A stretch of DNA of 64,000 nt from Nitrospirales bacterium (GTDB taxonomy: Bacteria > Nitrospirota > Nitrospiria > Nitrospirales > UBA8639). Positions 1-34,300 of this stretch are shown one piece after another. A program made the position numbers and the translations under genes. The DNA lies in contig OZ242177.1 of NCBI GenBank assembly GCA_965205795.1, positions 2,440,424-2,504,423 on the forward strand, given 5' to 3'. The number at the start of each line of letters is the position of its first letter. Position 1 is the first letter of the stretch. The notes beneath the pieces were generated by a model. It saw only the letters and a program-made list of their open reading frames with translations, was not told the origin of the DNA and did not search any database.

Positions 1-3000
1 GGCGGCGCCGTGGTTACGACCATTGACACCGCCACCGGCCGGTTGTTCCTGCCCGGCGGCTTTGAGGCCCAGACCGGCGCCACCGGCCGCACCAACGGGC
101 AGGGCGCCTACGGCAGCTTCACCCTGACCACTGCCGGCATGTGGACCTATGCGCTGAATAACGCCGACCCCGCCACCAACGCGCTGGCGGGCGGCGTCCG
201 GGTCACCGACGTCTTTACGGCGGTCGCCGCCGACGCCAGCGAGACGCAAGCCGTCACCATCACCGTCATTGGCGCCAATGATGCGCCCACAGCGAACGCC
301 GGGGCTGATCAACCCGCCGTGCTTGTCGACGCCACGGTCACGCTGGAGGGCCGCGGCACCGACCCGGATGCCGGCGACAGCATTGTCGCCTACACTTGGA
401 CACAAAGCGGCGACCCGGCGGTAATCTTGAGCGCCGCCGATGTGGCCCGGCCGACCTTCACGGCGCCGGACGTGACGAGCGTCACCGCACTGACCTTTGC
501 CCTGGTGGTCAGCGACGGCGAAGCGGCTTCACCCGCCGACACCGTCACCATCACCGTCTACCCGGCCATCACCGGCGACACGACCGGCATGGTCATGGAA
601 GGCGGCGTCGCGGTTGCGACCATTGACACCGCTACCGGCCGGTTGACCCATGCCATCGGCGCCTTTGTGGCCCAGCCCGGCGCCGACCCCACCAACGGGC
701 AGGGCGCCTACGGCCGCTTCACCCTGGCCACCGGCGGGGCGTGGACCTATACGCTGGATAACGAGGCCCCCGACACCGACGCGCTCCCCGCCGGCGTGAC
801 GATGACCGATGTCTTTACGGCGGTGTCCAGCCTGAACGCGGCCGTGACGCAAGCCGTCACCATCACCGTCACCGGCGCCAATGACGCGCCGACCGCCGAC
901 GCGGGCGCCGCCCGGACAGTGCCCCAGAGCGCCACGGTAGCGCTGATTGGCCGCGGCACCGACCCGGACACCGGCGACCAGGCGGCGCTGGGCTATGTGT
1001 GGACACAGACCGGTGGCACGTCGACCGTCACCCTCGTCCCCGGGGTGGCCCCCACCACAGTCACCTTCCTCGCGCCCACGGTGACGGTGGACACGCCCCT
1101 GACGTTCACGCTGACCGTGACCGACCCGCAGCCGGTCGCGGCCACCGACACCGACACCGTGATCGTCACCATTAGCGCGGCCCTCACGGCCTCCACCATC
1201 ACCGGCAGCATTTTCGGCGGCATCACCGAAGACGCGGATCCGAACACCGCCATCGGCACGCTGACCGTGACCACGCTGCAGATCGTGGGTGATGACGTCA
1301 TCGGCACGTTCCAGCCGCAGACCGTGCCGGGCGTCTACGGCGCCTTCACGCTGGCCGACACCGGCGCGTGGACCTACACGCTGAACAACGAGAACATCGT
1401 CATCAACGCCCTGCCCCTGGGCTCCGAGGAGCTCCAGGAGACCTTCCGGGTGGTGGCCGTCGACAGCACCCCGGCGACCGTGACCATCTTTATCAACGGC
1501 GCCAATGACCTCCCCACCGTCGAGGTTGAGCCGACGCAGACCGTTGGCGAAGAGACTATTGTGACGCTGACCGGCACCGGCGATGACGTGGATACCGGCG
1601 ATCGGGACCGGTTGCGCTATCAGTGGACACAGATTGATTTTGAGCTTGACGACCCCACGGCTGTCACGCGGCAGGTCACGCTGACCAACGCGGACACCGC
1701 CACCGCCACCTTTACCGCGCCCAATTTCCTTGAGGCCACGCCCCTGACGTTCACGCTGACCGTCGCCGATGTGCATAGCGCCGGCGTCACCGCCACGGTG
1801 ATCGTCACCGTGACCGCGGTCAACGACCCGGTGCTCATCGGCGGCGAGCAGACCGGGAGCGTCACCGAAGACGGGGCGGTGTTGGCGCGGGGCGAGTTGA
1901 CGATCCGTGATCCGGATGGCCACGACCGCTTCCGGGCCCAGACGGCCGTGGCCGGCGACTATGGCACGCTGGCGAGCCTGACCGCCACCGGCGTGTGGGT
2001 CTACGCGCTGAACAACAATGACGAAGTCGTTCAGAACCTGCGGGCGACCGACGTGCGCACCGAGACCTTCACCGTGCGGGCCGAGGACAACACCCCCGTG
2101 AGCCTCACCATCACCGTCAACGGCGCCAATGACGCGCCGACTGCCACGGGCCGGTTCCGGAGCGACGCGCTGATCATTGACAGCAGCGTCATTGGGGGGA
2201 GTGCGGTGAGTCTGGTCGGCACGGGCACCGACCGGGATACCGGCGAGCAGGCGGCGTTGCGCTATGCATGGACGCAAGTCAGCGGCCAGCCCGACGTCCT
2301 GCTGACCGCCGCGGACACCGCCACCGCCACCTTCACCGCGCCGACGTTGCCCGCGGAGACGACGCTGGTGTTTGAGTTGACCGTCACCGACGGGCAAGAG
2401 GCCACCGCCATCGCGCCGGTGCGTGTGCTCGTGCGGGCGGCGGACAACATCCCGGCGGTCTTTGGCGGGACGCGCGGCCGCGTCACCGAAGACGGGGAGC
2501 CGACCGCCACCGCCACGCTGACCGTGACTGACGCGGATGGCTCTGATACTACCGTCCAGGCGCAGGCCGACCTTGTCGGCGCCTATGGCAGGTTCACGCT
2601 GAACGCCGCGACCAGCGTGTGGAGCTACACACTGAATAACGACACGGACGCCGTCCAGGGCCTGGCCGCGAACGAGGCCGTGCGTGAACGGTTTGCCGTG
2701 CGGGCCGCGGACGGCACGCGGGGCGAGGTCGTCATCACCGTCCACGGCGCCAACGACGCGCCGACCGTGACCGCCACCAGCGAGCCGGTGACGGCCAATG
2801 AGGGCACCACCGTGACCCTGACCGGCACCGGCACCGACCCGGATCGGCAAGACCGGTTGCGCTATCAGTGGACGCCGCCCGCCGGCATCCCGACCAGTGG
2901 GCTTCTCCCCTCCGCGACCTCGGCCCGCATCACCTTTGCCGTGCCGGATTTGCCCGGAGACACGGCCCTGGCGTTCACGCTGACCGTCACCGACCCGTCG

Positions 3001-4344
3001 GAGGTCACCGCCACCGCCATGGTCACCGTCATGGTCACGGCGGAGAACGATGCGGCGACCTTTGGCGGCACCCACACCGGCACGGTCATTGAAAACGACA
3101 GTGCGAACAGTGTGGCCGCGGGCGTGTTGACCGTCAGAGACCCGGACACCCTCCACCGCTTCACGGCGCAGACCGACCTGGCCGGCACCTACGGCCGGTT
3201 CACCCTGTTCGCCGACGGGCGCTGGCGGTACGTCCTGGACAACGACGATCTGGACACCAACGCGCTGGCCGCGAGTGAGGAAGCCACCGACCGCTTCCCG
3301 GTGGCGACCGAGGACGGCACGACGTTCCAGCTGACGACCACGGATGGCCCGACGCCCACGGAAGTGAACGCGGTAGTCATCACCATCACCGGCTTCAATG
3401 ACCCGCCGACCGTCGACGCCGGGGCCGCGCAGTTTGTGCCGACCGGGTCGACGGTGACGCTGGCCGGCATCGTCAGCGACCCGGAGAGTAGCGCGGAGGC
3501 CCTGACCTATGCGTGGACGCAAACCGGCGCCCCCGCCGTCGACCTTGCCGGCGACGCCACCGCCACCGCCACCTTCCTCGCGCCCCCGGTCCCCGCGGAC
3601 ACGCCCCTGATGTTCACGCTGACCGTCACCGCGCCGGCCGCGCCAGGCGAGACAAGCGAGACAGGGGCGCAGCAGACGGTCATGGACACGGTGATCGTCA
3701 CGGTGCGCCCGTTCAGCGTCCCGGCGGTCTTTAGCGGCGAGCGCACCGGCGGCGTCACCGAAGACGCGCCCACGAACACCGCCACCGCCACGTTGACCGT
3801 GACAGACGCGGATGGCCCGAATCTTGCCCGGGCGCAGACCGACATCGCCGGCACCTATGGCCGCTTCAGCATCATCGACACCGGCGAGTGGATGTACACC
3901 CTGAACAATGCCGTTGACGCGCCGACCCAGGCGCTGGCGGCGAATCAACAGGTCACCGAGCGGTTCACGGTTCAGGCCGTTGACGGCACGCCGGATGCGG
4001 TGGTCATCACCGTCACCGGCGCCAACGACGCGCCGAGCGCGACCATTGACGCGCCGGCGCAGAGCGCCAACGAGGGTACCCTCGTGACCTTGAGTGGCCG
4101 CGGCCGCGACCCGGACATGCTCGACCGGCTGGCCTATCAGTGGACGCAGCGTGGCGGCACGGCCGAGACCCGCGTCACGCTGGACAACATCGAATCCCCC
4201 GACAACACGATGACCATGGTCAGCTTCACCGCGCCCGAGATCACCGCAGCCACGCCCCTGACCTTTGAGTTGACCGTCACCGACCCGACCGCCAGCGACC
4301 CGGCCACGGCCACGGCGCTGGTGACCGTCCACCCGGTTCCGGGC
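1..4344 (+). repeat. VCBS / PKD-like di-domain array (7 units, period ~0.60-0.65 kb; left edge cut by window)
   Basis: The VCBS motif ...YG.FTL...G.WTYTL.N......AL..G....D.F.......VTITVTGANDAPTA alternates with the PKD-like motif ...V.L.G.GTDPD.GD.L.Y.WTQ.GG..V.L....A.A.FTAP.....T.L.F.LTVTD. Y.WTQ landmarks lie at 401, 994, 1618, 2263, 2863, 3508 and 4134. Confidence 0.85.
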
Positions 4345-7300
4345 ATCAGCAGCCTGGCGTTGACCTCGGATGCCGGTGATGGCGTCTACGCGATTGGCGA
4401 CGAGATTGAAGCGACCGTCACCTTCGACGCCCCGGTCATCGTCACCGGCCAGCCGCGGCTGGCGCTGGGTGTGGGCCCGGCGACGCGGCGCCAGGCGGTG
4501 GCGGTCCCCACCGACAGCAGCAGCAGGACGACGCTGGCCTTCCGCTACACGGTTCGCGCCGGCGACCTTGACGAGGACGGCGTGAGTATCGGCGCCAATG
4601 CGCTGAGCCACACCGCCGACAGCACGATACGAGCCGCGGCCGATGCTGCCGCCGACGCGCTGATCACGCATACCGTGACGCTGGCCGCGAGCACCGCCCA
4701 TCGCGTAGACGGCATTGCCCCGGCGGTGGACCGTGTCACCCTCAGCACCACCGGCCCGTACATTGCGGGCGACGCGATTGCGTTGACGGCAACCTTCATC
4801 GACGCCGTCACGGTAATCGGCACACCGCAGATCGCGCTGACGGTGGGCCCGGCGACGCGCCAGGCGGTCTACGCCAGCGCCCGCAGCACCCCCACGGCGC
4901 TGGTCTTCAGCTACACCGTCGTCGCCGGCGACCACGATGCCGATGGGGTTGACGTCGCACCCAATGCCCTGGCGGCCAACAGCGGCCTCATCGGGGACGC
5001 CGCCGGCAACGACGCGGTGCTTGCCCACGATGCCATTGCTGCGGTCAACGCCAATCGAGTGGACACCGCCGTGCCGACAGTCAGCACGGCAACAATTAAT
5101 GGCAGGACACTGACACTGACCTACGAGGAGGCGCTCGACGCCCGCTCGGTACCGGCACCGTCAGCCTACACGCTGACGCTGGCGTCGGGCACTGCCCCGA
5201 CGGTGGCCAACGGCGGCGTGGCCATCAGCGGGCAGACCGTGACGCTCACGCTGAGCACCGCCGTGGTATCGACCGATGCTGGCGTGACGCTGACCTACAC
5301 CGCCGGGCCGACTCCGCTGCTGGATCTGGCCGGCAACCAGGCCGACGACTTCAGTGACCAGGCGGTGACCAACACCACGCCCGATCTGGTTCCGGATTTC
5401 GAAGCGCAGACCATTGCCGCCCAGACCTACACCGTGGGCACCGACGTTGGCACCGTCACATTGCCGGCAGCCACCGGCGGCAACGGCGAATTGGCCTATA
5501 CCCTCAGTCCGGCCCTGCCCAGCGGCCTGGTCTATACCGCCGCCGCGCGCACCATCAGCGGCACCCCGGCACAAGGCACCGAGCAGGCCGCCACCCCCTA
5601 CACCTACACCGTGCGCGACCGCGACGGCAGCAGTGCGACCCTTGGCTTCACCCTCCGCATCACCCCGGCGGTCATGACCGGCGCGGTGACGGAAGACGAC
5701 CCCGACGCCACCACCACGAGCGGCCGGTTGACCCTGCCCGGCGGCTTTGCTCCCCAGACCGACGCGGTGGGCGCCTACGGCACCTTTGCTCTGGCTGGCA
5801 CCGGCGCCTGGACCTACACGCTGGACAACAACGATGTCGACACCGACGCGCTGGCCGCCGGCGACACGATGACCGATGTCTTGACCGCGGTCTCCACCGC
5901 CGACAGCACGGTGACGCGCCAGGTCACCATCACCGTCACCGGCGCCGATGACTCGGCGGAGATCAGCGGCACGACCACCGGCGGCGTCACCGAAAACGAT
6001 GCCACCACCACCGCCAGCGGCACGCTGACAATCATTGACCCGGACAGTGCCACCACCTTCACGTCGCTTGACGAAGCATCCGGCACCTACGGCGCCTTCA
6101 GGCTGGCCGCGAGCGGCGCGTGGACCTACACCCTGGACAACAGGGATGTGGACACCAACGCGCTGGCCGTGGACAGCGAGGGCACCGACGTGTTCACCGT
6201 GGTGACGAGCGACGCCACCACGGCACTCGTGACCCTCACCATCACCGGCGCCAACGACGCGCCGACCGCCGCGGCCGGCGTCGACCAGACCGTCACCGAA
6301 GGCGACCAGGTCGCGCTGAGCGGCACGGGCACCGACCCGGATACCGGGGATCTCCTGACCTATGCGTGGACGCAGACCGGCGACACAGCCGAGCCCGCAG
6401 TCGCGCTGACCAATGCCAACACCGCCCGCGCCACCTTCACTGCGCCGCAATTACCCGCGCCCGTGACGCTGACGTTCGTGCTGACCGTCACCGACCAACA
6501 GACCGCCCTCCACACCGACATGGTGCTGGTCACCGTTCAGGCGCAGAACACCCCGGCCGCCATCAGTGGTGCGCGCATGGGCAGCATCACCGAAAACGCG
6601 GCCCCGAACACGGTCACCGGCATGCTGACGGTCATGGATGAGGATGGCGACGACGACTTCAGCGCCGGGGTGATCTCCAGCATCTCCGACCCCGACCCCG
6701 CCCCGCTGGCCGACACCGGCGCCGGGTCGGTCTCCGGCGTCTACGGCAGCTTCACGCTGGCCGTCACCGGCGCGTGGACCTATACGTTGGACAACGGCAA
6801 CTCCAACACCGACGGGCTGATTGAGGACGCCACCATCACCGAGACGTTCCGGGTACAGACGGCCGACGGCACCGCGGAGACGGTCGTGCTCACCATCACC
6901 GGCGTCAATGACGCGCCGACTGCCATTGCCGGCGCCGCGCGCACCGTGTCCGAAGCCAGCCAGGTAACCCTGACCGGTCGCGGCGAAGACCCGGATGCCG
7001 GCGACACCCTGACGTATGCGTGGACACAGGTCGGCGGCACCCCCACGGTCACCCTCGCCGACGCCGCCACCACCCGCGCCAGCTTCATCACGCCGCAGTT
7101 GACCGCGTCGACCGCCCTGATGTTTGCGCTGACCGTGACCGACTCGTCCGGGGCCAGGGGCATCGACACCGTGGTGCTCACCGTCCAGGCCGACAACGAC
7201 CCGGCGGTGGTCACCGGCGTGCGCACCGGCATCGTCACCGAAAACGCGGCCCCGGACGAGAGCGCCGCCACCGGCCAGCTGACCGCGACCGATCCGGACA

Positions 7301-10300
7301 GCCTTGACACGTTCCAGATGCAGACGGACGTCCCCGGCACCTACGGCACATTCCGTGTGACGATGCAGGGCGCGTGGACCTACAGGCTGGACAATGCGCT
7401 CGCGGCCACCAATGCGCTGGCGGCGAACCAGTCCTCGGTGCAAGACCGCTTTGAGGTGCAGACCGCGGACGGCACCGCAGACGCGGTGGTCATCACCGTC
7501 CTCGGCGCCAATGACGGGCCGACCGCCATGGTCGTCGGCGACGACCGGAGCGTTAACGAGGGTGCCGCGGTCACGCTGACCGGCACCGGCACCGACCCGG
7601 ACACCGACGACGTGCTGACCTATCGGTGGGCGCAGACCGGTGGCACGCCCCGGATTGCGCTGACTGGCGCGAACACCAACAGCGTCAGCTTCACCGCGCC
7701 GCCGTTAGCCGCGGACGCGCCCTTTGTGTTCACGCTGACCGTCACCGACTCGGCGCTCGCCACCGCCACCGACACGGTGACCGTGACCATCCAGGCGGAT
7801 GATGACGCGGCGACCATCACCGGCGATCGCACCGGGGCGGTCACCGAAGACGCGGATACGAACACGGTCATCGGCCAGTTGACCGCGGACGACCCGGATG
7901 GCGACAACCGCTTCCGGCCCCAGCGCGCCCTCGGCACCGCCGGCCAGTACGGCACCTTCAGGCTGACCGCGACCGGGGTGTGGACCTACATGCTGGACAA
8001 CCGCGCGGACGTCACCAACGCCCTGGCCGAGGGGGCCAGCGTCACCGACACCTTCATGGTCGCCGCCAGCGACGGCACCTCGGACGCAGTGGTGATCACC
8101 GTCCTCGGCGCCAATGACGCGCCGACCGCCACGGCCGGCGCCTCGCGGACTGTGCCCGAAGCCGCGCAGGTGACCCTGGTGGCCACCGCGACGGACCCGG
8201 ATAGCGGGGATCTCCTGACCTATGCGTGGACGCAGCTCGCCGGCACGCCGGAGCAGATGCTGGACGGCGCCGACACCGCCAATGCCCGCTTCACCACGCC
8301 CCAGCTTGAGGACACCACCGCCTTCACATTCACGCTGACGGTCACCGACCGGGCGCGCGCCCAGGCCACCGACCGGGTCATCATCACCGTGGATGCGGAC
8401 AACGACGCGGCCACGATCACCGGCACCCCCACCGGCGCCGTCACCGAAGCCGGCATTGAAGCCGGCACCGAGACCGCAGGCGTGCCGACGACCACCGGCA
8501 CGTTGACCGTGACCGACCCGGATGGCGACGACCGCTTCCAGCCCCAGCCCGCCCCCGGCACCGCAGGCCGCTACGGCGCCTTGAGCCTGACCGAGAACGG
8601 GGTTTGGAGCTATACCCTGAGCAATGCGGATAGTGCCACCAACGCCCTGCTCGCGGACGCCATCGTCACCGACACCTTCCCGGTGGCCGCCAGTGACGGC
8701 ACCGAGGTGTTGGTGGCGATCACGGTCACCGGCGCCAATGACGCGCCGACCGCGAACGCCGGGGCGGATCAGGCCGACATTCCTGAAGGGCAACGGGTGT
8801 TCCTGTCTGGCAGCGGGAGCGACCCGGACACCGGCGATGCGGCGGCCCTGACGTATGTCTGGACGCAGACCGGCGGCACGCCCACCGTCACGTTCACCCC
8901 CTCCGGGCCGTCCAGAGTCGTCCGCTTCACCGCGCCGCAGTTGCTCGCAGGGACGACCCTGATGTTTGAGCTGACCGTGACCGACCCGCAGGGCGCCGTG
9001 GACCGTGATCAGGTGCAGGTCACCATTGAGGCGGACAATGACCCGGCGACCATCACTGGCCAGCGCACCGGAGCAGTCACCGAAGACGCGGAGCCCACCG
9101 TCACCGGCCAGCTGACCGTGACCGACCCGGATGGCGCCGACCGCTTTGCGGCGGTGGCGGATCCCGGCCTCGTCGGCATCTACGGCACCTTCACCCTGAC
9201 CGCCGAAGGCGCGTGGACCTACACCCTGGACAATGATGACCCGGACACCGATGCTCTGGCCGCGAATGCCCGCGTCACCGACACGTTCACCGTGCGGCCT
9301 GAGGACCCGGGTGACTCCGCCGAGGTCACCATCACCATCCTCGGCGCCAATGATCCGGCGGTCGCGATCACCGGCACGACCACCGGCGCCGTGACCGCCG
9401 TGCCCGCAGCCACGGCGCCCACCCTCGCCACCGGCACGCTGGTGGTGGATGATCCGGACGGCCCCGGCACCGTCCAGGCGCGGGAGACCCCCGGCGCCTA
9501 CGGCGTCTTCCGCGTGACCGCGCAAGGGGTCTGGACCTACACCCTGACCAACGCGGACCGGGACACCATCGCCCTGGCCGCGGGTGACACCGCGACCGAC
9601 GCGTTCACCGTGACCGCGGACGACGGCATCACGACGACCGTCACCATCACCGTCACCGGCGCGGATGACCCGGTGACGATCACCGGCACGACCACCGGCG
9701 CCGTGACCGAAGGCCGGGGGCCGTTCAGCGGCACATTGACCGCGACCGACCCGGACAGCCCGGCGTCCCCCGTCCTGTTCCAGGCATTGACCACCCCCGG
9801 CCTCTACGGCATCTTCAACGTGACCGCAGGCGGCGTCTGGCGCTACACGCTGGACAATGAGAATGCGGCCACCAACGCCCTGGCCGCGGACGCCACCGAG
9901 ACCGAACGTTTCACCGTGACCGCGGACGGCATCACGACGACCGTCACCATCACCGTCACCGGCGCCGATGACCCGTCCACCATCGGTGGTGATCTCACCG
10001 GCGCCGTCACCGACAACGCACCGACGACCACCGACAGCGGCACGCTGACCGCGATCGACCTGGACGAGATAGAGACCCCCATCGAATTCGTCCCCATCAC
10101 GTTCACGCTGCCGACGAGTGCCGGTGGCCCCTACGGCGGTGCCGGTGCCGGCATCTACGGCGGCCTGGAGCTGGCCGCGACCGGCGAGTGGACCTACACC
10201 CTGAACCTGGACGATGCGGACACCATCGCCCTGGCCGCGGGCGCCACCGCCACCGACGCGTTCACTGTCATGGCGACGAATGCCGGCGTTGACGATGCCG

Positions 10301-22300: not shown

Positions 22301-25300
22301 ACATCCCGGCGGTCTTTACCGGGGGGACGCGCGGCCGCGTCACCGAAGACGGGGAGCCGACCGCCACCGCCACGCTGACCGTGACTGACGCGGATGGCTC
22401 TGATACTACCGTCCAGGCGCAGGCCGACCTTGTCGGCGCCTATGGCAGGTTCACGCTGAACGCCGCGACCAGCGTGTGGAGCTACACACTGAATAACGAC
22501 ACGGACGCCGTCCAGGGCCTGGCCGCGAACGAGGCCGTGCGTGAACGGTTTGCCGTGCGGGCCGCGGACGGCACGCGGGGCGAGGTCGTCATCACCGTCA
22601 ACGGCGCCAACGACGCGCCCGAAGTGTCGATTGAAGGGCCGGCAGCGGCCGTGCCCGAAGTCGATCCCGTTGGCACCCCCAGCATCGTGACCCTGACCGG
22701 CACCGGCACCGACCCGGATCGGCAAGACCGGTTGCGCTATCAGTGGACGCCGCCCGCCGGCATCCCGACCAGTGGGCTTCTCCCCTCCGCGACCTCGGCC
22801 CGCATCACCTTTGCCGTGCCGGATTTGCCCGGAGACACGGCCCTGGCGTTCACGCTGACCGTCACCGACCCGTCGGAGGTCACCGCCACCGCCATGGTCA
22901 CCGTCATGGTCACGGCGGAGAACGATGCGGCGACCTTTGGCGGCACCCACACCGGCACGGTCATTGAAAACGACAGTGCGAACAGTGTGGCCGCGGGCGT
23001 GTTGACCGTCAGAGACCCGGACACCCTCCACCGCTTCACGGCGCAGACCGACCTGGCCGGCACCTACGGCCGGTTCACCCTGTTCGCCGACGGGCGCTGG
23101 CGGTACGTCCTGGACAACGACGATCTGGACACCAACGCGCTGGCCGCGAGTGAGGAAGCCACCGACCGCTTCCCGGTGGCGACCGAGGACGGCACGACGT
23201 TCCAGCTGACGACCACGGATGGCCCGACGCCCACGGAAGTGAACGCGGTAGTCATCACCATCACCGGCTTCAATGACCCGCCGACCGTCGACGCCGGGGC
23301 CGCGCAGTTTGTGCCGACCGGGTCGACGGTGACGCTGGCCGGCATCGTCAGCGACCCGGAGAGTAGTGCGGAGGCCCTGACCTATGCGTGGACGCAAACC
23401 GGCGCTCCCGCCGTCGACCTTGCTGGCGCCGCCACCGCGACCGCCACCTTCCTCGCGCCCCCGGTCCCCGCGGACACGCCCCTGATGTTCACGCTGACCG
23501 TCACCGCGCCGGCCGCGCCAGGCGAGACAAGTGAGACAGGGGCGCAGCAGACGGTCATGGACACGGTGATCGTCACGGTGCGCCCGTTCAGCGTCCCGGC
23601 GGTCTTTAGCGGCGAGCGCACCGGCGGCGTCACCGAAGACGCGCCCACGAACACCGCCACCGCCACGTTGACCGTGACAGACGCGGATGGCCCGAATCTT
23701 GCCCGGGCGCAGACCGACATCGCCGGCACCTATGGCCGCTTCAGCATCGTCGACACCGGCGAGTGGATGTACACCCTGAACAATGCCGTTGACGCGCCGA
23801 CCCAGGCGCTGGCGGCGAATCAACAGGTCACCGAGCGGTTCACCGTCCAGGCCGTTGACGGCACGCCGGATGCGGTGGTCATCACCGTCACCGGCGCCAA
23901 CGACGCGCCGAGCGCGACCATTGACGCGCCGGCGCAGAGCGCCAACGAGGGTACCCTCGTGACCCTGAGTGGCCGCGGCCGCGACCCGGACACGCTCGAC
24001 CGGCTGACCTATGCGTGGACGCAGCGTGGCGGCACGGCCGAGACCCGCGTCACGCTGGACAACATCGAATCCCCCGACAACACGATGACCATGGTCAGCT
24101 TCACCGCGCCCGAGATCACCGCAGCCACGCCCCTGACCTTTGAGTTGACCGTCACCGACCCGACCGCCACCGACCCGGCCACGGCCACGGCGCTGGTCAC
24201 CGTCAACCCGGTTCCGGGCATCAGCAGCCTGGCGTTGACCTCAAATGCCGGTGATGGCGTCTACGCGATTGGCGACGAGATTGAAGCGACCGTCACCTTT
24301 GACGCGGCGGTCATCGTCACCGGCCAGCCGCGGCTGGCGCTGGGTGTGGGCCCGGCGACGCGGCGCCAGGCGGTGGCGGTCCCCACCGACAGCAGCAGCA
24401 GGACGACGCTGGCCTTCCGCTACACGGTTCGCGCCGGCGACCTTGACGAGGACGGCGTGAGTATTGGCGCCAATGCGCTGAGCCACACCGCCGACAGCGC
24501 GATACGAGCCGCGGCCGATGCTGCCGCCGACGCGCTGATCACGCATACCGTGACGCTGGCCGCGAGCACCGCCCATCGCGTAGACGGCATTGCCCCGGCG
24601 GTGGACCGTGTCACCCTCAGCACCACCGGCCCGTACATTGCGGGCGACGCGATTGCGTTGACGGCAACCTTCATCGACGCCGTCACGGTAATCGGCACAC
24701 CGCAGATCGCGCTGACGGTAGGCCCGGCGACGCGCCAGGCGGTCTACGCCAGCGCCCGCAGCACCCCCACGGCGCTGGTCTTCAGCTACACCGTCGTCGC
24801 CGGCGACCACGATGCCGATGGGGTTGACGTCGCACCCAATGCCCTGGCGGTCAACAGCGGCCTCATCGGGGACGCCGCCGGCAACGATGCGGTGCTTGCC
24901 CACGATGCCATTGCCGCGGTCAACGCCAATCGAGTGGACACCGCCGTGCCGACAGTCAGCACGGCAACAATTAATGGCAGGACACTGACACTGACCTACG
25001 ATGAGGCACTTGACGCCCGCTCGGTACCGGCACCGTCAGCCTACACGCTGACGCTGGCGTCGGGCACTGCCCCGACGGTGGCCAATGGCGGCGTGGCCAT
25101 CAGCGGGCAGACCGTGACGCTCACGCTGCGCACCGCCGTGGTATCGACCGATGCGGGCGTGACGCTGACCTACACTGCCGGGCCGACTCCGCTGCTGGAT
25201 CTGGCCGGCAACCAGGCCGACAACTTCAGTGACCAGGCGGTGACCAACACCACGCCCGATCTGGTTCCGGATTTCGAAGCGCAGACCATTGCCGCCCAGA

Positions 25301-28300
25301 CCTACACCGTGGGCACCGACGTTGGCACCGTCACATTGCCGGCAGCCACCGGCGGCAACGGCGAATTGGCCTATACCCTCAGTCCGGCCCTGCCCAGCGG
25401 CCTGGTCTATACCGCCGCCGCGCGCACCATCAGCGGCACCCCGGCACAAGGCACCGAGCAGGCCGCCACCCCCTACACCTACACCGTGGGCGACCGCGAC
25501 GGCAGCAGTGTGGCCCTTGGCTTCACCCTCCGCATCACCCCGGCGGTCATGACCGGCGCGGTGACGGAAGACGACCCCGCCGCCACCACCGCGAGCGGCC
25601 GGTTGACCCTGCCCGGCGGCTTTGCTCCCCAGACCGACGCGGTGGGCGCCTACGGCACCTTTGCTCTGGCTGACACCGGCGCCTGGACCTACACGCTGGA
25701 CAACAACGATGTCGACACCGACGCGCTGGCCGCCGGCGACACGATGACCGATGTCTTGACCGCAGTCTCCACCGCCGACAGCACGGTGACGCGCCAGGTC
25801 ACCATCACCGTCACCGGCGCCGATGACCCGGCGGAGATCAGCGGCACGACCACCGGCGGCGTCACCGAAAACGATGCCACCACCACCGCCAGCGGCATGC
25901 TGACAATCATTGACCCGGACAGTGCCACCACCTTCACGTCGCTTGACGAAGCATCCGGCACCTACGGCGCCTTCAGGCTGGCCGCGAGCGGCGCGTGGAC
26001 CTACACCCTGGACAACAGGGATGTGGACACCAACGCGCTGGCCGTGGACAGCGAGGGCACCGACGTGTTCACCGTGGTGACGAGCGACGCCACCACGGCA
26101 CTCGTGACCCTCACCATCACCGGCGCCAACGACGCGCCGACCGCCGCGGCCGGCGTCGACCAGACCGTCACCGAAGGCGACCAGGTCGCGCTGAGCGGCA
26201 CGGGCACCGACCCGGATACCGGGGATCTCCTGACCTATGCGTGGACGCAGACCGGCGACACAGCCGAGCCCGCAGTCGCGCTGACCAATGCCAACACCGC
26301 CCGCGCCACCTTCACTGCGCCGCAATTACCCGCGCCCGTGACGCTGACGTTCGTGCTGACCGTCACCGACCCGCAGACCGCTTTCCACACCGACACGGTG
26401 CTGGTCACCGTGAATGCGCAGAACGCCCCGGCCGCCATCAGCGGGATGTTCACCGGCAGCATCACCGAAAACGCGGCCCCGAACACGGTCACCGGCATGC
26501 TGACGGTCATGGATGAGGATGGCGACGACGACTTCAGCGCCGGGGTGATCTCCAGCATCTCCGACCCCGACCCCGCCCCGCTGGCCGACACCGGCGCCGG
26601 GTCGGTCTCCGGCGTCTACGGCAGCTTCACGCTGGCCGTCACCGGCGCGTGGACCTATACGTTGGACAACGGCAACTCCAACACCGACGGGCTGATTGAG
26701 GACGCCACCATCACCGAGACGTTCCGGGTACAGACGGCCGACGGCACCGCGGAGACGGTCGTGCTCACCGTCACCGGCGTCAATGACGCGCCGACCGCCA
26801 TTGCCGGCGCCGCGCGCAACGTGTCCGAAGCCAGCCAGGTAACCCTGACCGGTCGCGGCGAAGACCCGGATGCCGGCGACACCCTGACGTATGCGTGGAC
26901 GCAGGTCGGCGGCACCCCCACGGTCACCCTCGCCGCCGCCGCCACCACCCGCGCCAGCTTCATCACGCCGCAGTTGACCGCGTCGACCGCCCTGGTGTTT
27001 GCGCTGACCGTGACCGACTCGTTGGGGGCCACGGGCATCGACACCGTGGTGCTCACCGTCCAGGCCGACAACGACCCGGCGGTGGTCACCGGCGTGCGCA
27101 CCGGCATCGTCACCGAAAACGCGGCCCCGGACGAGAGCGCCGCCACCGGCCAGCTGACCGCGACCGATCCGGACAGCCTTGACACGTTCCAGATGCAGAC
27201 GGACATCCCCGGCACCTACGGCACGTTCCGTGTGACGATGCAGGGCGCGTGGACCTACAGGCTGGACAATGCGCTCGCGGCCACCAATGCGCTGGCAGCG
27301 AACCGGCCCTCGGTGCAAGACCGCTTTGAGGTGCAGACCGCGGACGGCACCGCAGACGCGGTGGTCATCACCGTCCTCGGCGCCAATGACGGGCCGACCG
27401 CCATGGTCGTCGGCGACGACCAGGACGTTAACGAGGGTGCCGCGGTCACGCTGACCGGCACCGGCACCGACCCGGACACCGACGACGTGCTGACCTATCG
27501 GTGGGCGCAGACCGGTGGCACGCCCCGGATTGCGCTGACTGGCGCGAACACCGCCAGCGTCAGCTTCACCGCGCCGCCGTTAGCCGCGGACGCGCCCTTT
27601 GTGTTCACGCTGACCGTCACCGACTCGGCGCTCGCCACCGCCACCGACACGGTGACCGTGACCATCCGGGCGGATGATGACGCGGCGACCATCACCGGCG
27701 ATCTCACCGGGGCGGTCACCGAAGACGCGGATACGGACACCGTCATCGGCCAGTTGACCGCGGACGACCCGGATGGCGACAACCGCTTCCGGCCCCAGCG
27801 CGCCCTCGGCACCGCCGGCCAGTACGGCACCTTCAGGCTGACCGCGACCGGGGTGTGGACCTACATGCTGGACAACCGCGCGGACGTCACCAACGCCCTG
27901 GCCGAGGGGGCCAGCGTCACCGACACCTTCATGGTCGCCGCCAGCGACGGCACCTCGGACGCAGTGGTGATCACCGTCCTCGGCGCCAATGACGCGCCGA
28001 CCGCCACGGCTGGCGCGTCGCGGACTGTGCCCGAAGCCGCGCAGGTGACCCTGGTGGCCACCGCGACGGACCCGGATAGCGGGGATCTCCTGACCTATGC
28101 GTGGACGCAGCTCGCCGGCACGCCGGAGCAGATGCTGGACGGCGCCGACACCGCCAATGCCCGCTTCACCACGCCCCAGCTTGAGGACACCACCGCCTTC
28201 ACATTCACGCTGACGGTCACCGACCGGGCGCGCGCCCAGGCCACCGACCGGGTCATCATCACCGTGGATGCGGACAACGACGCGGCCACGATCACCGGCA

Positions 28301-31300
28301 CCCCCACCGGCGCCGTCACCGAAGCCGGCATTGAAGCCGGCACCGAGACCGCAGGCGTGCCGACGACCACCGGCACGTTGACCGTGACCGACCCGGATGG
28401 CGACGACCGCTTCCAGCCCCAGCCCGCCCCCGGCACCGCAGGCCGCTACGGCGCCTTGAGCCTGACCGAGAACGGGGTTTGGAGCTATACCCTGAGCAAT
28501 GCGGATAGTGCCACCAACGCCCTGCTCGCGGACGCCATCGTCACCGACACCTTCCCGGTGGCCGCCAGTGACGGCACCGAGGTGTTGGTGGCGATCACGG
28601 TCACCGGCGCCAATGACGCGCCGACCGCGAACGCCGGGGCGGATCAGGCCGACATTCCTGAAGGGCAACGGGTGTTCCTGTCTGGCAGCGGGAGCGACCC
28701 GGACACCGGCGATGCGGCGGCCCTGACGTATGTCTGGACGCAGACCGGCGGCACGCCCACCGTCACGTTCACCCCCTCCGGGCCGTCCAGAGTCGTCCGC
28801 TTCACCGCGCCGCAGTTGCTCGCAGGGACGACCCTGATGTTTGAGCTGACCGTGACCGACCCGCAGGGCGCCGTGGACCGTGATCAGGTGCAGGTCACCA
28901 TTGAGGCGGACAATGACCCGGCGACCATCACTGGCCAGCGCACCGGAGCAGTCACCGAAGACGCGGAGCCCACCGTCACCGGCCAGCTGACCGTGACCGA
29001 CCCGGATGGCGCCGACCGCTTTGCGGCGGTGGCGGATCCCGGCCTCGTCGGCATCTACGGCACCTTCACCCTGACCGCCGAAGGCGCGTGGACCTACACC
29101 CTGGACAATGATGACCCGGACACCGATGCTCTGGCCGCGAATGCCCGCGTCACCGACACGTTCACCGTGCGGCCTGAGGACCCGGGTGACTCCGCCGAGG
29201 TCACCATCACCATCCTCGGCGCCAATGATCCGGCGGTCGCGATCACCGGCACGACCACCGGCGCCGTGACCGCCGTGCCCGCAGCCACGGCGCCCACCCT
29301 CGCCACCGGCACGCTGGTGGTGGATGATCCGGACGGCCCCGGCACCGTCCAGGCGCGGGAGACCCCCGGCGCCTACGGCGTCTTCCGCGTGACCGCGCAA
29401 GGGGTCTGGACCTACACCCTGACCAACGCGGACCGGGACACCATCGCCCTGGCCGCGGGTGACACCGCGACCGACGAGTTCACCGTGACCGCGGACGACG
29501 GCATCACGACGACCGTCACCATCACCGTCACCGGCGCGGATGACCCGGTGACGATCACCGGCACGACCACCGGCGCCGTGACCGAAGGCCGGGGGCCGTT
29601 CAGCGGCACATTGACCGCGACCGACCCGGACAGCCCGGCGTCCCCCGTCCCGTTCCAGGCATTGACCACCCCCGGCCTCTACGGCACCTTCAGCGTGACC
29701 GAAGGCGGGGTCTGGCGCTACACGCTGGACAATGAGAATGCGGCCACCAACGCCCTGGCCGCGGACGCCACCGAGACCGAGAGTTTCACCGTGACCGCGG
29801 ACGGCGTCACGACCACCGTCACCATCACCGTCACCGGCGCCGATGACCCGTCCACCATTGGTGGCGATCTCACCGGCGCCGTCACCGACAACGCGCCGAC
29901 GACCACCGACAGCGGCACGCTGACCGCGATCGACCTGGACGAGATAGAGACCCCCATCGAATTCGTCCCCATCACGTTCACGCTGCCGACGAGTGCCGGT
30001 GGCCCCTACGGCGGTGCCGGTGCCGGCATCTACGGCGGCCTGGAGCTGGCCGCGACCGGCGAGTGGACCTACACCCTGAACCTGGACGATGCGGACACCA
30101 TCGCCCTGGCCGCGGGCGTCACCGCCACCGACGCGTTCACTGTCATGGCGACGAATGCCGGCGTTGACGATGCCGTGCTCACCATCACCATCACCGGCGC
30201 CGACGACCCGGTGGTCTTCAGCGGGTTCACCGGCAGTACGACAGAAGACGAGTTCATCGGCGGATTCAACGAGCTCAGCGGCTTCTTGAGTGCGACGGAC
30301 CCGGACGCCCCCGGATTGCGCTACACCTTCCGCCTCGCGCCCGGCGACTTCCAGGGCACCTACGGCACCTTCACCCTCAACGCCGGTGGCCTCCCCCGCT
30401 GGCGCTACCGGCTGGACAATACTGACGCGGACACCAACGCCCTGGCCGCAGGTGCCACCGTCACCGACACGTTCAGCGTGATGGTCGCCGATGAAGACGG
30501 CAACGACATCACCGATGTGACGCCAGCCGTCACCATCACCGTCACCGGCGCCAATGACGCGCCGACCGCCGAGGCGGGCGACGACCAGACCGTGCCCCGG
30601 GGCGCCATGGTGGCGCTGATTGGCCGCGGCACCGACCCGGACACCGGCGATGCGGCGATGCTGACCTATGCGTGGACGCAGACCGCCGGCACGCCGACCG
30701 TCACGCTCACCCCCGGAGCGGGCGACACCACGGTCACCTTTATCGCGGACCCGGTCACCGCGGACACGACCGTGACGTTCACGCTGACCGTGACTGACCG
30801 GCAGGGCGCCATGGACACCGACACCGTGACAGTCGCCATTGATGCGGGCAGCATGGCCTCCACCATCACCGGCGACCTGACCGGCACCGTCACCGAAGAC
30901 GCGGAGCCGAACACCGCCACCGGCATGCTGACCGCGACGGCCGGGGACAACACCGTGCGCAATTTCGTGGCACAGACCGTGCCGGGCACCTACGGCACCT
31001 TCATGCTGACCGCGACCAATAGCTGGACCTACACGCTGGACAACACACCGGGCAGCGCCACCGACGCCCTGCCGATGGACAGCGCACGCATTGAGCAATT
31101 CCCGGTGGCGGCCATCGACAGCAGCACGGCGCTGGTGACCATCACGGTCAACGGCGCCAATGACGCGCCGACCGCCGATGCCGGCGACGCCGTCAGCGTG
31201 AACGAAGGCGATCCGGTCACGCTGGACGGCAGCGGCTCCAGCGACCCGGATAGCGGTGAGGGAACGGCCCTGACCTATCAGTGGACGCCGGTTGCCGGCA

Positions 31301-34300
31301 CGCCGACCGTCACGCTCACCGATGCCGAGACCGCCACGCCCAGCTTCACCGCGCCCGCAGTAGACGAGGACGCGAGACTGACATTCATACTGACGGTCAC
31401 CGACCCGCAGCGCGTCACGGACACCGCCACGGTGGCCGTCACCGTGCGTGCGCTGCCGGTCATCTCCATCGCCGCCGTGACATCCCCGGTGACCGAGGGG
31501 ACGGCGGCGACCTTCACGCTGACGGCGAGCTCTGCACCGGTGGCAGACCTGACGGTCAGTGTGACGGTCACCGACCCGGGCAACTTCATTGCCGGGCCGG
31601 CGCCGACGATGGTGACGATTGCCGCCAGCGCAACGACGGCCACGCTGACCGTGCCGACCACAGCTGACACCGCCGACGAGGCCAACGACACGATAACGGT
31701 GGAGGTGGCGCCGAACGCCGGCTACACGGTTGGCGACCCGGCCACAGCCAGTGTCAGGATAGACGACGACGACGACGTGCCGACGCTGGCGATTAGCTCG
31801 TCAGAGCCACCGGCAGTGGAGGAGGGCGACGACAGCGAGAGCGAGTCGCCGGCGCGATTGCTCTACACGGTGACGCTGACCGGGGAGACGGAGCGGACGG
31901 TGACCGTGGAGTACGGCATGAGTGGCACGGCGACCGAGAACACCGACTACCGGGTGAACACGGGGGTCGGCCCCGTTGGCCGTCTGACGTTTGCGCCGGA
32001 CACGATGAGCCGGACGATTGAAGTGCTGGTAACGGGTGACACGATTGACGAGGATGACGAGACGGTCATCATCACGCTGTCAAACCCGGACAACGCAACG
32101 ATCACAACAGCCGCCGGCACGGGCACGGGTACGATTACCGACGATGACACCCTGAGCCTCTCGATCGTCGCCGTGACACCCTCGGTGACCGAAGGGACGG
32201 CGGCGACCTTCATGCTGACGACCGTGACGGCAGACCCTGCTCCGGCGACGGCGTTGACAGTCATGGTGTCCGTCACCGACTCAGGCAATTTCCTTGCCGG
32301 GCCGGTGCCGACGATGGTGACGATTGCCGTCGGCGAAACGACCGCCCTGCTGACGGTGGAGACCGATGACGACAGCATCGGCGAGGCGAACGGCATGATC
32401 ACGGCCACGGTGACCAACGGTATGGGCTATACAGTCGGCGACCCGGCCACCGCCGAAGTCACGATCACCGATAACGATGTCCCAACGCTGGCGATTGACT
32501 CGCCGAGTGTGCGGGAAGACGCAGCGGGATTGACCTACACGGTGACGCTGACCGGGGCGAGGGAGCAGACGGTGACGGTGGGCTACGCGGTGACAGATGG
32601 TACGGCGACCACGGCCGACTACACCGCCGTGTCCACCGCCGGCACACTGACGTTTACGCCGGGCACGCTGACACAGACGATTGAGGTGACGGTGACGGAT
32701 GACAGCATTGACGAGACCGACGAGACGGTCATCGTCACCCTGTCGACTCCGGTCAACGCGACGATCACCGCCGCCACCGGCACCGGCACGATTACCGACG
32801 ACGACGCGGCCCCCGTGGTCACCCTGGTGCTGACCCCGGCCACGATCGCCCAGAGCGGCGGCGTGAGCACCGTCACGGCCAGGCTGGACCAGGCCTCGTC
32901 CGCGTCAACCACGGTGACCGTCAGTGCGACCCCGGTCAGCCCGGCGGTTGCGGGTGATTACAACTTGAGTGACCCGTCGATGCTGACCATTGCCGCCGGG
33001 GCGACCAGCAGCACCGGGCTCGTCACCATCACCGCCGTGAATCGCGGTACCACGACTCCCCGGGAGGTGACGGTGTCGGCCATGGTCGTCAACGACAACG
33101 GCTTCACGGGGCCGGCTGACGAAACCCTGACCATCGCCGCCGCGGTGCCGGGGGATGATGACGGCCTGCGTTTCGCGGACGGGGCGGTGAATCTGTTCTA
33201 TCCGCTGAACATGCCGATCACCCCCACGACATTGCCGCGGGAGGCCACCGACGACGACGGGGCGCTGGCCTACACCCTGAGCCATTTGCACCTGTCCTTG
33301 AGCGAGTTGGGGCTGGCCTTTCACCCGGCCACCCGCACCCTGACCGGCACGCCGACCCTGGCCGGCGCCGGCTATGACGCGGATCAGTTCGGGTTTGAGT
33401 TTGGCTATACGGTGACCGACGAGGCCGGGCGCACGGCTGAGCTGGAAGTGTTCATCACCATCTGCGAAGTCGGTGCGGTGCCGGCCGGCACCACCGAGTG
33501 CGCCCCGCCAGCCTATGTGGATCTGGCGTTTACCGCCACCGTGGAGGCGCAGAGCTATCCGGTCAACACGGCCATCTCCTCGCTGACCCTGCCGGATGCC
33601 ACCGGCGGCACTGGCGACAGCCCCCGCCTGATCTATGTCTTGTCCCCGCTGCCCGCCGGGCTGGCCTTTGACCCGGCCACCCGTATTCTGACCGGCACGC
33701 CGACCGACCCCGGCGTCACCGGGCTGACGTATGCCGTCACCGACGCTGCGAGCGACCGGAGCTTCGCGCAGGCCTTTACCGTGACAGTGACCGGGCCGAC
33801 GCTGGGCAGTCAGGGCGATCTGACCTACCCTGCGTCCATCGCGATCACCCCGGTGACCCTGCCATCAGCCACCGGCGGCGCCGCGCCGCTGGTCTACACC
33901 CTGACCGGGCCAAATGGCGAGTCGCTGGCGACCGCCGTGCCCGGGCTGGTCTTTGCCCCGGCCCCGGCCGACCGCATCCTGTCCGGCACGCCGACCGTGG
34001 CGGGCCTGACCACGCTGACCTACACGGTCACCGACAGCGCCACCCCGCCGGCCACCGACGTACAGACCTTTACCGTGACGGTGACCGGGGCGACGCTGGC
34101 CCGGCCGGCCGACATCACCACTCCGCCCGGCACGCCGTTCACCAGCGACTCGTTCCCGGAGCTCCTGAATGCCGCCGGGCCGATCACCTACACCGTGACC
34201 CGGCCGAACGGCCTCCTGTTGCCCACCGGCCTGACCTTTACCCCGACCACTCGCGTGCTGTCCGGCCAGGTGGCCGTGGGCGGTGTGACCATCCCGTTGG

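Follow-up and report, generated by a model that had tools for sequence, protein, structure and literature searches.

Recombination between in-frame repeats of a probable giant adhesin gene in a Nitrospirales bacterium

The window analyzed here, a 64,000-nt stretch of DNA from a Nitrospirales bacterium, appears to be an internal piece of one gene of at least 64 kb that encodes a fibrillar, calcium-binding-type surface adhesin and whose repeats recombine homologously with one another as the gene evolves. We give these two readings a joint probability of about 0.8. The repeat pair at the center of this work, copies A and B, is one of many in-frame segmental duplications that are nested in one another and together occupy the window. 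It is the homogenized core of a longer super-repeat, the two copies lying in successive units of roughly 18 to 20 kb. A preliminary description had proposed that a single open reading frame (ORF) had undergone either a very recent duplication or continuing gene conversion, with an assembly artefact as the alternative. That proposal was supported, and gene conversion was favored of the two.

One giant reading frame of adhesin-like domains

Frame 1 of the plus strand contained no stops across 63,999 nt (21,333 codons), versus 576 to 1,055 stops in each of the other plus-strand frames, and neither the start nor the stop of the gene lies within the window. The GC content of this frame at codon positions 1, 2, and 3 was 62%, 56%, and 86%, respectively. 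The preliminary description had relied on minus-strand ORFs, and the near identity of their translations between the two copies was reproduced in all four comparisons: three pairs were identical at the nucleotide level, and the pair 5161-6450 and 25036-26325 differed at 14 nt, which change 8 minus-strand residues. However, these ORFs are high-GC shadows of plus-strand frame 1, which is the real gene. With coding-type composition and domains throughout, the uninterrupted frame belongs among the giant genes (more than 10,000 amino acids).

In the domain map, approximately 215 tandem Ig-like/VCBS beta-sandwich domains made up 89% of the window. Pfam matches were obtained to K319L-like PKD, Cadherin_4, Big_9, He_PIG, Calx-beta, and SWM_repeat, and within the first 30 kb the NCBIfam VCBS_repeat model matched 19 plus 16 stretches. 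The sole PDB sequence match was 6XI1 (E = 1.7e-47), the extender tetra-tandemer from the Aeromonas RTX adhesin AhLap (PMC7493085). The encoded protein is acidic and contains few positively charged residues, and its best full-length relatives include Vibrio, Aliivibrio, and Shewanella proteins of the "VCBS / retention module-containing" kind, which have RTX domains. No match to PF00353 (HemolysinCabind) was found by Pfam in window positions 1-59988, and no NCBIfam match to a retention module was found in the first 30 kb; the window is internal to the gene, whose C terminus and N terminus both lie beyond it. The window is ORF from end to end and contains no genes for a type I secretion system (ABC transporter, membrane fusion protein, or TolC). 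Since the gene ends fall outside the window, the putative secretion route and the probable adhesin or stalk function of the giant protein are proposed from domain homology.

Table 1. Coordinates of the giant gene fragment, its repeat blocks, and the tracts that distinguish them
Feature	Position	Strand	Basis or remark
Internal fragment of single giant gene	1-63999	+	Stop count, GC3 (86%), Pfam, NCBIfam, domain map
Copy A of duplicated block (P1-Q1-R1), ~35 domains	566-11586	+	blastn, global alignment
Homogenized high-identity tract, copy A	1329-11586 (partner 21189-31461)	+	~98.8% identity
Further perfect A/B tracts	2811-3491, 10245-10756, 6024-6496	+	Exact-repeat comparison
Densest difference patch, 17 in 83 nt, at domain junction	6497-6579 (partner 26372-26454)	+	A/B alignment
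Longest perfect A/B tract, 1,459 nt	8143-9601 (partner 28018-29476)	+	Simulation
S1 block, ~ten He_PIG-type domains, continues copy A unit	11587-15365	+	Homologous to S2 and S3
U module, sole stretch without a paralog of at least 80% in window	15365-16690	+	Self-comparison
Copy B of duplicated block (P2-Q2-R2)	20423-31461	+	blastn, global alignment
Mosaic upstream part of copy B	20423-21188	+	Six-copy alignment with sliding identities, PHI
Linker patch replaced in copy B only (net +18 nt versus A 2770-2808)	22627-22682	+	Alignments
T cassette of four Calx-beta-type domains (450 codons, 1,350 nt)	31462-32811	+	In copy B, missing from A
S2 block, continues copy B unit past T cassette	32812-36566	+	Nearer S3 (95.6%) than S1
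P3, copy of P block	38295-41362	+	Third-party partner in mosaic
Remaining further P-block copies, mosaic partners	43074-46156, 51336-54406, 56103-59176	+	blastn, six-copy alignment
Paralog of T cassette, with one S-type domain	47257-48949	+	98.1% over 1,705 columns with copy B 31462-33151
R3, third R-block copy	59719-61176	+	~85% to R1 and R2; blastn, alignment
S3 block	61171-64000	+	Homologous to S1

The repeat pair and its edges

Segment 1331-11586 had been described as recurring at 21191-31461, and self-BLAST and global alignment upheld this, with the high identity beginning at 1329. Over their full extents, copies A and B were 97.16% identical in 11,058 columns. In bins of 200 nt, identity from 1329 to 11586 ranged from 93 to 100%, save at a divergent indel patch (2770-2808 / 22627-22682). 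The ungapped core, 2809-11586 at an offset of 19,875 nt, comprises 8,778 nt with 109 substitutions (98.76% identity), zero indels, a dS of 0.019, a dN/dS of 0.52, and a Ts/Tv of 1.87. The offset equals 3 x 6,625, and the copies are co-oriented and in the same frame. As had been claimed, net changes of offset inside the high-identity tract are divisible by 3, and so are the offsets of all 15 exact repeats of at least 300 nt in the window.

Upstream of the high-identity tract, at 561-1328, A/B identity fell to approximately 75 to 88%, in agreement with the earlier observation of a homologous but more diverged stretch of about 0.75 kb. The upstream part of copy B is a mosaic: it was merely 61 to 93% identical to copy A in sliding windows, whereas positions 20540-21050 were nearest to P3 at ~38.5 kb (93 to 98%) and positions 21050-21185 were nearest to P5/P6 (93 to 96%). 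Because upstream copy B fits these other paralogs better than it fits A, the identity step at 21188/21189 (A 1328/1329), which lies inside a Cadherin_4-type domain, is a conversion or recombination breakpoint. Within the high-identity tract, the sequence of copy A at 2770-2808 matches P3 at 100%, and a related contig (L003, see below) has the A type in each of its two copies of the block. No donor was found within the window for the replaced patch of copy B or for the densest difference patch.

The right edge is of a different kind. A/B identity drops to ~50% directly after CTGCCGGTC at 11586/31461, and the abrupt end noted previously is thus real as far as it goes. However, the stop arises because the T cassette is present only in copy B, and homology resumes beyond its 1,350 nt, where 11587-15365 and 32812-36566 are 92 to 93% identical. 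The cassette itself is 98% identical to 47257-48609, and its left junction carries a 12-nt microhomology, GCGCTGCCGGTC, in common with 47245-47256. The longer stretch 47257-48949 is the partner of copy B 31462-33151 in a recent exchange. Block junctions sit in an inter-domain linker motif, ...PV|V/I...

All but about 1.3 kb of the window has a paralog elsewhere in it. The exception, the U module, had no Pfam match and was predicted, with low confidence, to be all-beta; its seven homologs were all found in one sponge-type metagenome. At the far end of the window, R3 is followed by S3, the two being joined by the same R/S junction sequence as in copy A.

Probable gene conversion and the alternative accounts

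We propose that unequal crossing-over between paralogous domain-coding stretches would duplicate or delete whole blocks, every product remaining in frame because the partners are homologous and lie in the same frame. Nonreciprocal gene conversion would then overwrite stretches of one copy with those of another, leaving perfect tracts of 0.3 to 1.5 kb, sharp identity steps, and patches resembling a third paralog. The machinery is presumably RecA-type homologous recombination. Under this scheme, the A/B core is among the three most recently homogenized tracts in the window (dS of ~0.02). Its right edge at 11586 is an indel, placed precisely at a linker, of the four domains of the T cassette, which has in turn undergone a recent exchange with its 47-kb counterpart. 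Several observations bear on this proposal. The nearest paralog changes along the P block in the six-copy alignment with sliding identities, and the PHI statistic was 0.255, compared to 0.341 +/- 0.009 under permutation, with 0/2,000 permutations as low. Perfect tracts were also present in older pairs that are 93 to 97% identical overall, namely, 375 nt in S1/S2 (12550-12924 / 33772-34146), 606 nt in U4/U6, and 880 nt in U5/U6, each of which was matched in 0/20,000 simulations. In a related metagenome-assembled genome (MAG), two stop-free stretches of 21 kb, separated by 38 kb, contain the blocks of the window in another order; the loci L001 and L002 of this relative consist of ORF throughout.

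A related, independently assembled contig provided a comparison between genomes. This contig, L003 (~94% identical), holds the P-Q-R block twice in tandem with a period of 12.9 kb (12,907 nt) and offers weak independent support, since its coverage is 2x, its frameshifts are numerous, and it is flagged "c" (circular). With c1 and c2 denoting its two copies, the site pattern AB|c1c2 was found 331 times versus 17 and 22 for the other patterns, as read from this 2x contig. Such closeness within genomes, along with the difference in repeat period (19,875 versus 12,907 nt), would fit independent duplication of the block in the two organisms, the block being in that case newly doubled in each rather than duplicated long ago and kept similar by conversion. 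Against this, 19 columns were variable both between A and B and between c1 and c2, compared to 2.2 expected (P = 3.5e-13), an approximately ninefold excess, and 16 of the coinciding sites had the same two alleles. In addition, the shorter unit of L003 is accounted for if sequence was deleted between two homologous Big_9-type domains, whose equivalents in the window lie at ~10.7 and 17.3 kb. Independent duplication is therefore doubtful, and an old duplication maintained by conversion is preferred: paralogs within a genome are closer than their counterparts between genomes and yet have some paralog-specific variants in common, with the 2x contig as the comparator.

The same mosaicism could be the work of a dedicated surface-variation system, in which frequent and selected cassette exchange within and between several giant genes varies the exposed stalk. 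The pervasiveness of the mosaicism, the linker-precise exchange of cassettes, and dN/dS values near 1 all fit such a system. So does the presence of several giant genes in the relative, another one of which contains a part that is 79% identical to a 1-kb Q segment. However, silent donor loci, a site-specific recombinase, a DGR, and other dedicated machinery are all absent from the window, and every one of these features is expected under ordinary homologous recombination among long repeats. The high dN/dS between repeats (0.5 to 1.1) could reflect weak constraint rather than function. We consider a dedicated system unlikely and retain ordinary recombination between the repeats as the explanation.

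One tandem duplication of ~10 to 20 kb in the very recent past, followed by point mutation alone and no gene conversion, would account for the high identity and low dS of the core and for the shared orientation and frame of the copies. It does not account for the distribution of the differences. These were strongly clustered (dispersion index, 4.3), and the longest perfect A/B run greatly exceeded the simulated maximum (mean, 417 nt; 99.9th percentile, 876 nt) and was matched in 0/5,000 simulations. Identity was stepwise along the unit, with dS values from the upstream part to the S block of 0.18, 0.03, 0.02, and 0.08. The better fit of upstream copy B to P3 and then to P5/P6 than to A, the significant PHI, and the occurrence of a tandem pair in a related population, with 16 two-allele variants in common with A/B, also argue against this account, to which we attach little probability. 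Taken together, the clustered differences, the significant PHI, the perfect tracts in older pairs, and the variants in common with the relative mean that ongoing gene conversion is better supported than one fresh duplication.

Finally, an assembly artefact, either a false duplication or a chimera threading two strain variants of one locus in tandem through a repeat graph, is quite unlikely: although assemblers visibly struggle with this giant-ORF family (two "c"-flagged contigs in the relative's sample, L003 at 26 kb or 2.03 units and ctg77936_5x_c at 79 kb, consist of giant-ORF repeats only), the copies differ by 258 mismatches and also in structure (T cassette, patch specific to B, mosaic stretch upstream); are divided by an 8.8-kb spacer that includes single-copy sequence; keep frame at every junction across 64 kb, with the junctions at domain linkers; differ in the core by substitutions with a Ts/Tv and an absence of indels that are unlike sequencing error; and have a tandem counterpart in L003. 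Because the family provokes repeat-induced errors such as "circular" ORF-only contigs, copy numbers from metagenome assemblies call for long-read verification.

Relation to known systems and significance

Concerted evolution, in which unequal crossing-over and gene conversion keep intragenic tandem repeats alike, is familiar from bacterial surface-protein repeats, rDNA arrays, and eukaryotic super-repeat genes such as titin and nebulin. The window likewise has closer copies within than between genomes, mosaic identity, perfect tracts, and a repeat number that varies between relatives; its differences are uneven and tract-like, with a statistical signal of recombination among paralogs, and its copies are co-oriented in one frame at offsets that are multiples of 3. 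The A/B pair is a clear example of this known process and no new kind of system, although repeat units as large as these (10 to 20 kb, ~35 to 60 domains) are unusual within one bacterial ORF. Cassette-based antigenic variation of the pilE/pilS or vlsE type was rejected as a model: all identified partners lie within the same ORF, and no separate silent donor loci are visible within the window.

As for the protein, the window ORF resembles the type I-secreted RTX giant adhesins (AhLap, MhLap, MpIBP, LapA, and SiiE) in its long runs of ~100-amino-acid beta-sandwich repeats, and its many tandem repeats form a central extender with direct sequence homology to that of AhLap. The VCBS, Big_9, and Cadherin_4 repeat types are alike, as is the acidic composition with few positive charges, and repeats inside one RTX adhesin can be 94 to 100% identical (PMC7493085). 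In contrast, RTX adhesins have 1,500 to 15,000 amino acids and one short repeat unit of ~100 amino acids, whereas the window fragment alone encodes 21,333 amino acids in hierarchical multi-domain units of 1.4 to 20 kb with mixed domain types. The giant genes Cag_663 (110,418 bp) and Cag_665 (61,941 bp) of Chlorobium chlorochromatii (bioRxiv 10.64898/2026.03.19.712371) and those of Omnitrophota are also single ORFs of tens of kilobases for repetitive extracellular proteins, and their hosts live attached to or inside a partner, which we count as a further likeness. Those proteins are built of haemagglutinin or beta-helix and of HEAT or dockerin elements rather than Ig-like/VCBS domains, and they come from other lineages. 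In the window, moreover, the course of internal duplication can be read directly from the sequence.

Proteins of more than 10,000 amino acids are rare, and their elongation through duplication is an open topic (bioRxiv 10.1101/2023.11.21.568195). How bacterial genes grow to tens of kilobases remains an open question, for which the window, whose ORF already exceeds Cag_665 in length, is an unusually legible record of nested in-frame duplications of 1.4 to 20 kb, linker-exact cassette indels, and conversion tracts of graded age. Such recombination would make stalk length and surface differ among strains. A more speculative reading, to which we assign a low probability, is that sponge-associated Poriferihabitaceae-like bacteria keep a family of giant stalk proteins that contain almost no lysine and whose multi-domain cassettes are often swapped within and between genes by linker-guided recombination. 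If so, each strain, and even each subpopulation, would display a stalk of its own length and surface, and this recombination-driven variation may serve persistence in a phagocytic, filter-feeding host or escape from phages.

One open reading frame composed of repeated blocks

Frame 1 of the + strand was free of stop codons throughout the window (21,333 codons, GC3 of 86%), compared to 576 to 1,055 stops in the other + frames. Minus-strand ORFs were rejected as genes: the + frame had 0 stops and frame -2 still had 49, this low number being due to the GC3 richness of the + frame, of which the minus-strand ORFs of the preliminary description are shadows. Dozens of K319L-like PKD, bacterial cadherin (Cadherin_4), Big_9, He_PIG, Calx-beta, and SWM_repeat domains were found with Pfam, and NCBIfam gave 19 + 16 stretches of VCBS repeats in the first 30 kb. 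With HMMs seeded from the window, approximately 215 domains of approximately 100 amino acids each tiled 89% of the sequence; cross-hits between the models make the family labels loose. The sole solved structure matched by sequence was 6XI1 (E = 1.7e-47), a fragment of four extender repeats from the Aeromonas hydrophila RTX adhesin AhLap, whose rod is stiffened by calcium in the linkers (PMC7493085). Taken together, the stop-free frame, the Ig-like and VCBS domains, and the 6XI1 match argue that the window is an internal piece of a putative giant fibrillar adhesin-type gene. Its predicted RTX-adhesin family membership applies only to the extender region; the window includes neither the termini nor the secretion genes.

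The repeated pair flagged in the preliminary description is not isolated. All of the window except about 15.4 to 16.6 kb was matched by a paralog (at least 80% identity) at another position in it, and the two flagged copies, A (566-11586) and B (20423-31461), correspond to P-Q-R in two super-repeat units that follow one another and measure about 18 to 20 kb each.

Repeat blocks, large repeated pairs, and other features of the window
Feature	Positions	Size and copies	Remarks
P block	540-3631, 20424-23506, 38295-41362, 43074-46156, 51336-54406, 56103-59176	3.1 kb, six copies	
Q block	3631-10150, 23506-30025	6.5 kb, two copies	
R block		1.4 kb, three copies	
T block		1.35 kb, two copies	
S block		3.8 kb, three copies	
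X, V, W, Y blocks		smaller blocks	
Large pair	38295-47248 / 51309-60268		93% identity (self-BLAST)
Large pair	50869-55502 / 55633-60272		97.2% identity (self-BLAST)
Large pair	32812-35647 / 61171-64000		95.6% identity (self-BLAST)
U module	15365-16690		only stretch without a paralog of at least 80%
Spacer tandem duplication	17608-18860 / 18880-20156	about 1.27 kb	local, between copies A and B; 85% identity
Y-type blocks	37436-38052, 49847-50463		related to the spacer duplication; weak fn3 similarity

A ligand-binding or enzymatic domain was sought in the U module and in the stretches left unassigned, with no Pfam match. The AF2 model was all-beta at low confidence (pLDDT 64), and the U module carries Calx-beta-like acidic motifs. 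Only 7 homologs were found among 5.8 billion proteins, all in one ENA sample, and the module is itself repeated several times in relatives (contig ctg77936_5x_c). Among species representatives, the non-repeated segment matched one genome, a Candidatus Poriferihabitaceae MAG (Gammaproteobacteria, Arenicellales; a data note describing a HiFi/metaMDBG metagenome from a sponge uses this family name [PMC12859430]), at 78% and 50% amino acid identity at two sites of a 3.36-Mb contig that lie 38 kb apart. Because both 21-kb loci (L001 and L002) around these matches are stop-free throughout, a homologous gene of some 60 kb or longer is very probable in this relative. The window's blocks are present in it in a different order. 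A metagenome scan gave relatives at 38% only, and the closest match in protein searches was P0002 (93%), with none of the matches listed exceeding about 3.8 kaa.

Lysine avoidance was extreme, with 6 Lys and 8 Cys per 21,333 residues compared to approximately 485 Lys that the position-specific base composition would predict; there were 692 Arg and 2,637 Asp plus Glu. The relative's ortholog (L001 and L002) had 5 Lys in 7,063 residues and 2 in 7,028, and the relative's housekeeping genes of similar GC had 1.9 to 4.4% Lys. The window's cysteines are paired and lie at equivalent positions across the S copies.

Boundaries of the repeated pair

The recurrence of a segment of approximately 10.3 kb, given in the preliminary description, was borne out by self-BLAST of the window: copies A and B were 97.16% identical over 11,058 columns, which is far beyond chance, and all four shadow-ORF comparisons between the copies were exactly reproduced. 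In the global alignment, positions 561-1328, which cover nearly all of the approximately 0.75 kb that had been described as homologous but much more diverged, were indeed only about 75 to 88% identical to copy B, and positions 1329-11586 were 93 to 100% identical per 200-nt bin except for one divergent indel patch (2770-2808 / 22627-22682). The core (2809-11586, offset 19,875) aligned without gaps over 8,778 nt with 109 substitutions (98.76%).

The left boundary was resolved in an alignment of the six P copies. Copy B was closest to P3 at 20540-21050 (93 to 98%) and to P5/P6 at 21050-21185 (93 to 96%), and from 1325/21185 on it matched copy A at 98 to 100%. At 2714-2790, copy A was 100% identical to P3 and copy B had a private patch. 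The step at 1329, inside a domain, is a conversion or recombination breakpoint. For the dense patches of differences in the Q core, no donor sought in the window exceeded about 75 to 89% identity, and conversion from a third copy is therefore shown for the P and T/S parts only.

At the right boundary, the matching had been said to stop abruptly after CTGCCGGTC (11586/31461). Identity did fall to approximately 50% directly past this point in the global alignment, but unit homology restarted farther on, between 11587-15365 and 32812-36566 (92 to 93%). The R-S junction of copy A (...VRALPV/VTLVLTPP..., recurring at 61.1 kb) differs from the R-T junction of copy B (...VRALPV/ISIAAV...), which leads into a T cassette of exactly 1,350 nt, or 450 codons, encoding four Calx-beta-type domains, followed by the T-S junction (...DDAAPV/VTLVLTPA...). 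The T cassette and first S domain of copy B (31450-33151) were 98% identical to 47245-48949, and the left junction of copy B had just 12 nt of microhomology, GCGCTGCCGGTC, in common with this 47-kb locus. What looked like an abrupt stop is therefore a linker-exact cassette indel, accompanied by a recent exchange involving the 47-kb copy. Copy B may have gained the cassette or copy A may have lost it, both being compatible with the relative, used as outgroup, which has the T-S adjacency twice and no R-T junction.

Age and homogenization of the copies

The 109 core differences were clustered (index of dispersion, 4.3), leaving perfect runs of 1,459, 681, 512, and 473 nt between A and B; the simulated maximum run averaged 417 nt (99.9th percentile, 876), and 0 of 5,000 simulations reached the observed maximum. 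For the six P copies, PHI was 0.255 versus 0.341 +/- 0.009 when permuted (0 of 2,000 permutations as low). Older pairs also held perfect tracts, of 375 nt in S1/S2 (93% background), 606 nt in U4/U6, and 880 nt in U5/U6, each matched in 0 of 20,000 simulations. Values of dS changed stepwise, from 0.18 (566-1330) to 0.032 (1331-2769), 0.019 (core), and 0.083 (S block).

We then judged strain-level copy-number variation from one contig only, ctg76862_2x_c (L003), independently assembled from the relative's sample (ENA ERZ25069326). Its identity to the window was about 94%, and it held the same block twice in tandem (period of 12,907 nt, copies c1 and c2 97.9% identical), its shorter unit corresponding to a deletion between two homologous domains with window equivalents at approximately 10.7 and 17.3 kb. 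In a four-way alignment, 331 sites grouped A with B and c1 with c2, versus 17 and 22 for the alternative groupings. Within the core, A/B-variable and c1/c2-variable sites coincided at 19 columns versus 2.2 expected (P = 3.5e-13), with the same two alleles at 16 of the 19. The clustering, PHI, perfect tracts, dS steps, and L003 patterns together bear the signature of an old duplication that would predate the split of the two populations, with conversion keeping the copies similar within each genome. Of the earlier reading, a very recent duplication or ongoing conversion within a single ORF, the single ORF stands, and conversion is better supported than a simple fresh duplication. A small chance is left to independent duplication in the two lineages, which the shared alleles at the coinciding columns must be set against. 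That the pair is an assembly artefact is unlikely: this gene family is clearly hard for assemblers, as L003 and a 79-kb contig, nearly all giant ORF, are flagged "c", but the copies differ by 258 mismatches and structural features, are separated by 8.8 kb including single-copy sequence, keep every junction in frame and in domain linkers over 64 kb, differ in the core by substitutions (Ts/Tv of 1.87) without indels, and have the L003 tandem as a counterpart in a second assembly.

The two "c" (apparently circular) contigs were 26,160 nt (L003; 2.03 copies of the 12.9-kb unit) and 79,309 nt (ctg77936_5x_c). Their flags are probably repeat-induced circularization artefacts and not real circular elements, which calls for caution when "circular" contigs are mined in such metagenomes.

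Possible module sharing and the predicted stalk

At another locus of the relative's MAG (L006), at least three more giant genes lie within 30 kb (9,946, 3,574, and 20,669 amino acids); the first ends in leucine-rich repeats and the last starts with a Sec-like signal peptide. They are paralogs of the window gene, bearing LRR ends and a Sec-like signal, and were rejected as its ortholog; its termini are not revealed by them. Because window positions 4339-5378 (1 kb of the Q block) are 79% identical in nucleotide sequence to part of the 3,574-amino-acid gene, modules may be shared between different giant genes. This LRR/SWM gene is flanked by 300-nt tandem arrays of 5.4 and 4.5 copies with 97 to 98% matches (L006 6494-8125 and 21042-22389; ctg78838_38x_l, about 325 to 341 kb). 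Each unit was called as a 46-amino-acid ORF with short inverted repeats inside, an rve-family transposase gene adjoins one array, and a search of the arrays against Rfam gave no match.

RTX and other fibrillar adhesins are well known for near-identical tandem repeats and for repeat numbers that change through recombination, and giant genes are documented; repeats within one adhesin are 94 to 100% identical, with a recombination risk noted (PMC7493085). The window fragment, at 63,999 nt, is already longer than Cag_665 (61,941 bp), cited among the largest prokaryotic ORFs (bioRxiv 10.64898/2026.03.19.712371). Three aspects of the window are less common: its hierarchical scale, with repeat units of 10 to 20 kb inside a single bacterial ORF; a succession of events that can be read; and the lineage of the host. 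Values of dN/dS among paralogous blocks (0.5 to 1.1) would fit surface residues that diversify or are under weak constraint, on a conserved fold. RTX-adhesin extenders span roughly 4 to 5 nm per domain, and by analogy the stalk encoded by the window alone would approach a micrometer. We infer that all of these features are explained by ordinary homologous recombination, acting between repeats that are long, co-oriented, and in frame: unequal exchange would add or remove whole blocks, conversion would homogenize tracts, and linker-encoding microhomology would allow cassette-precise joins. Each such event would alter the number and order of beta-sandwich domains and, with them, the length and surface of the stalk.
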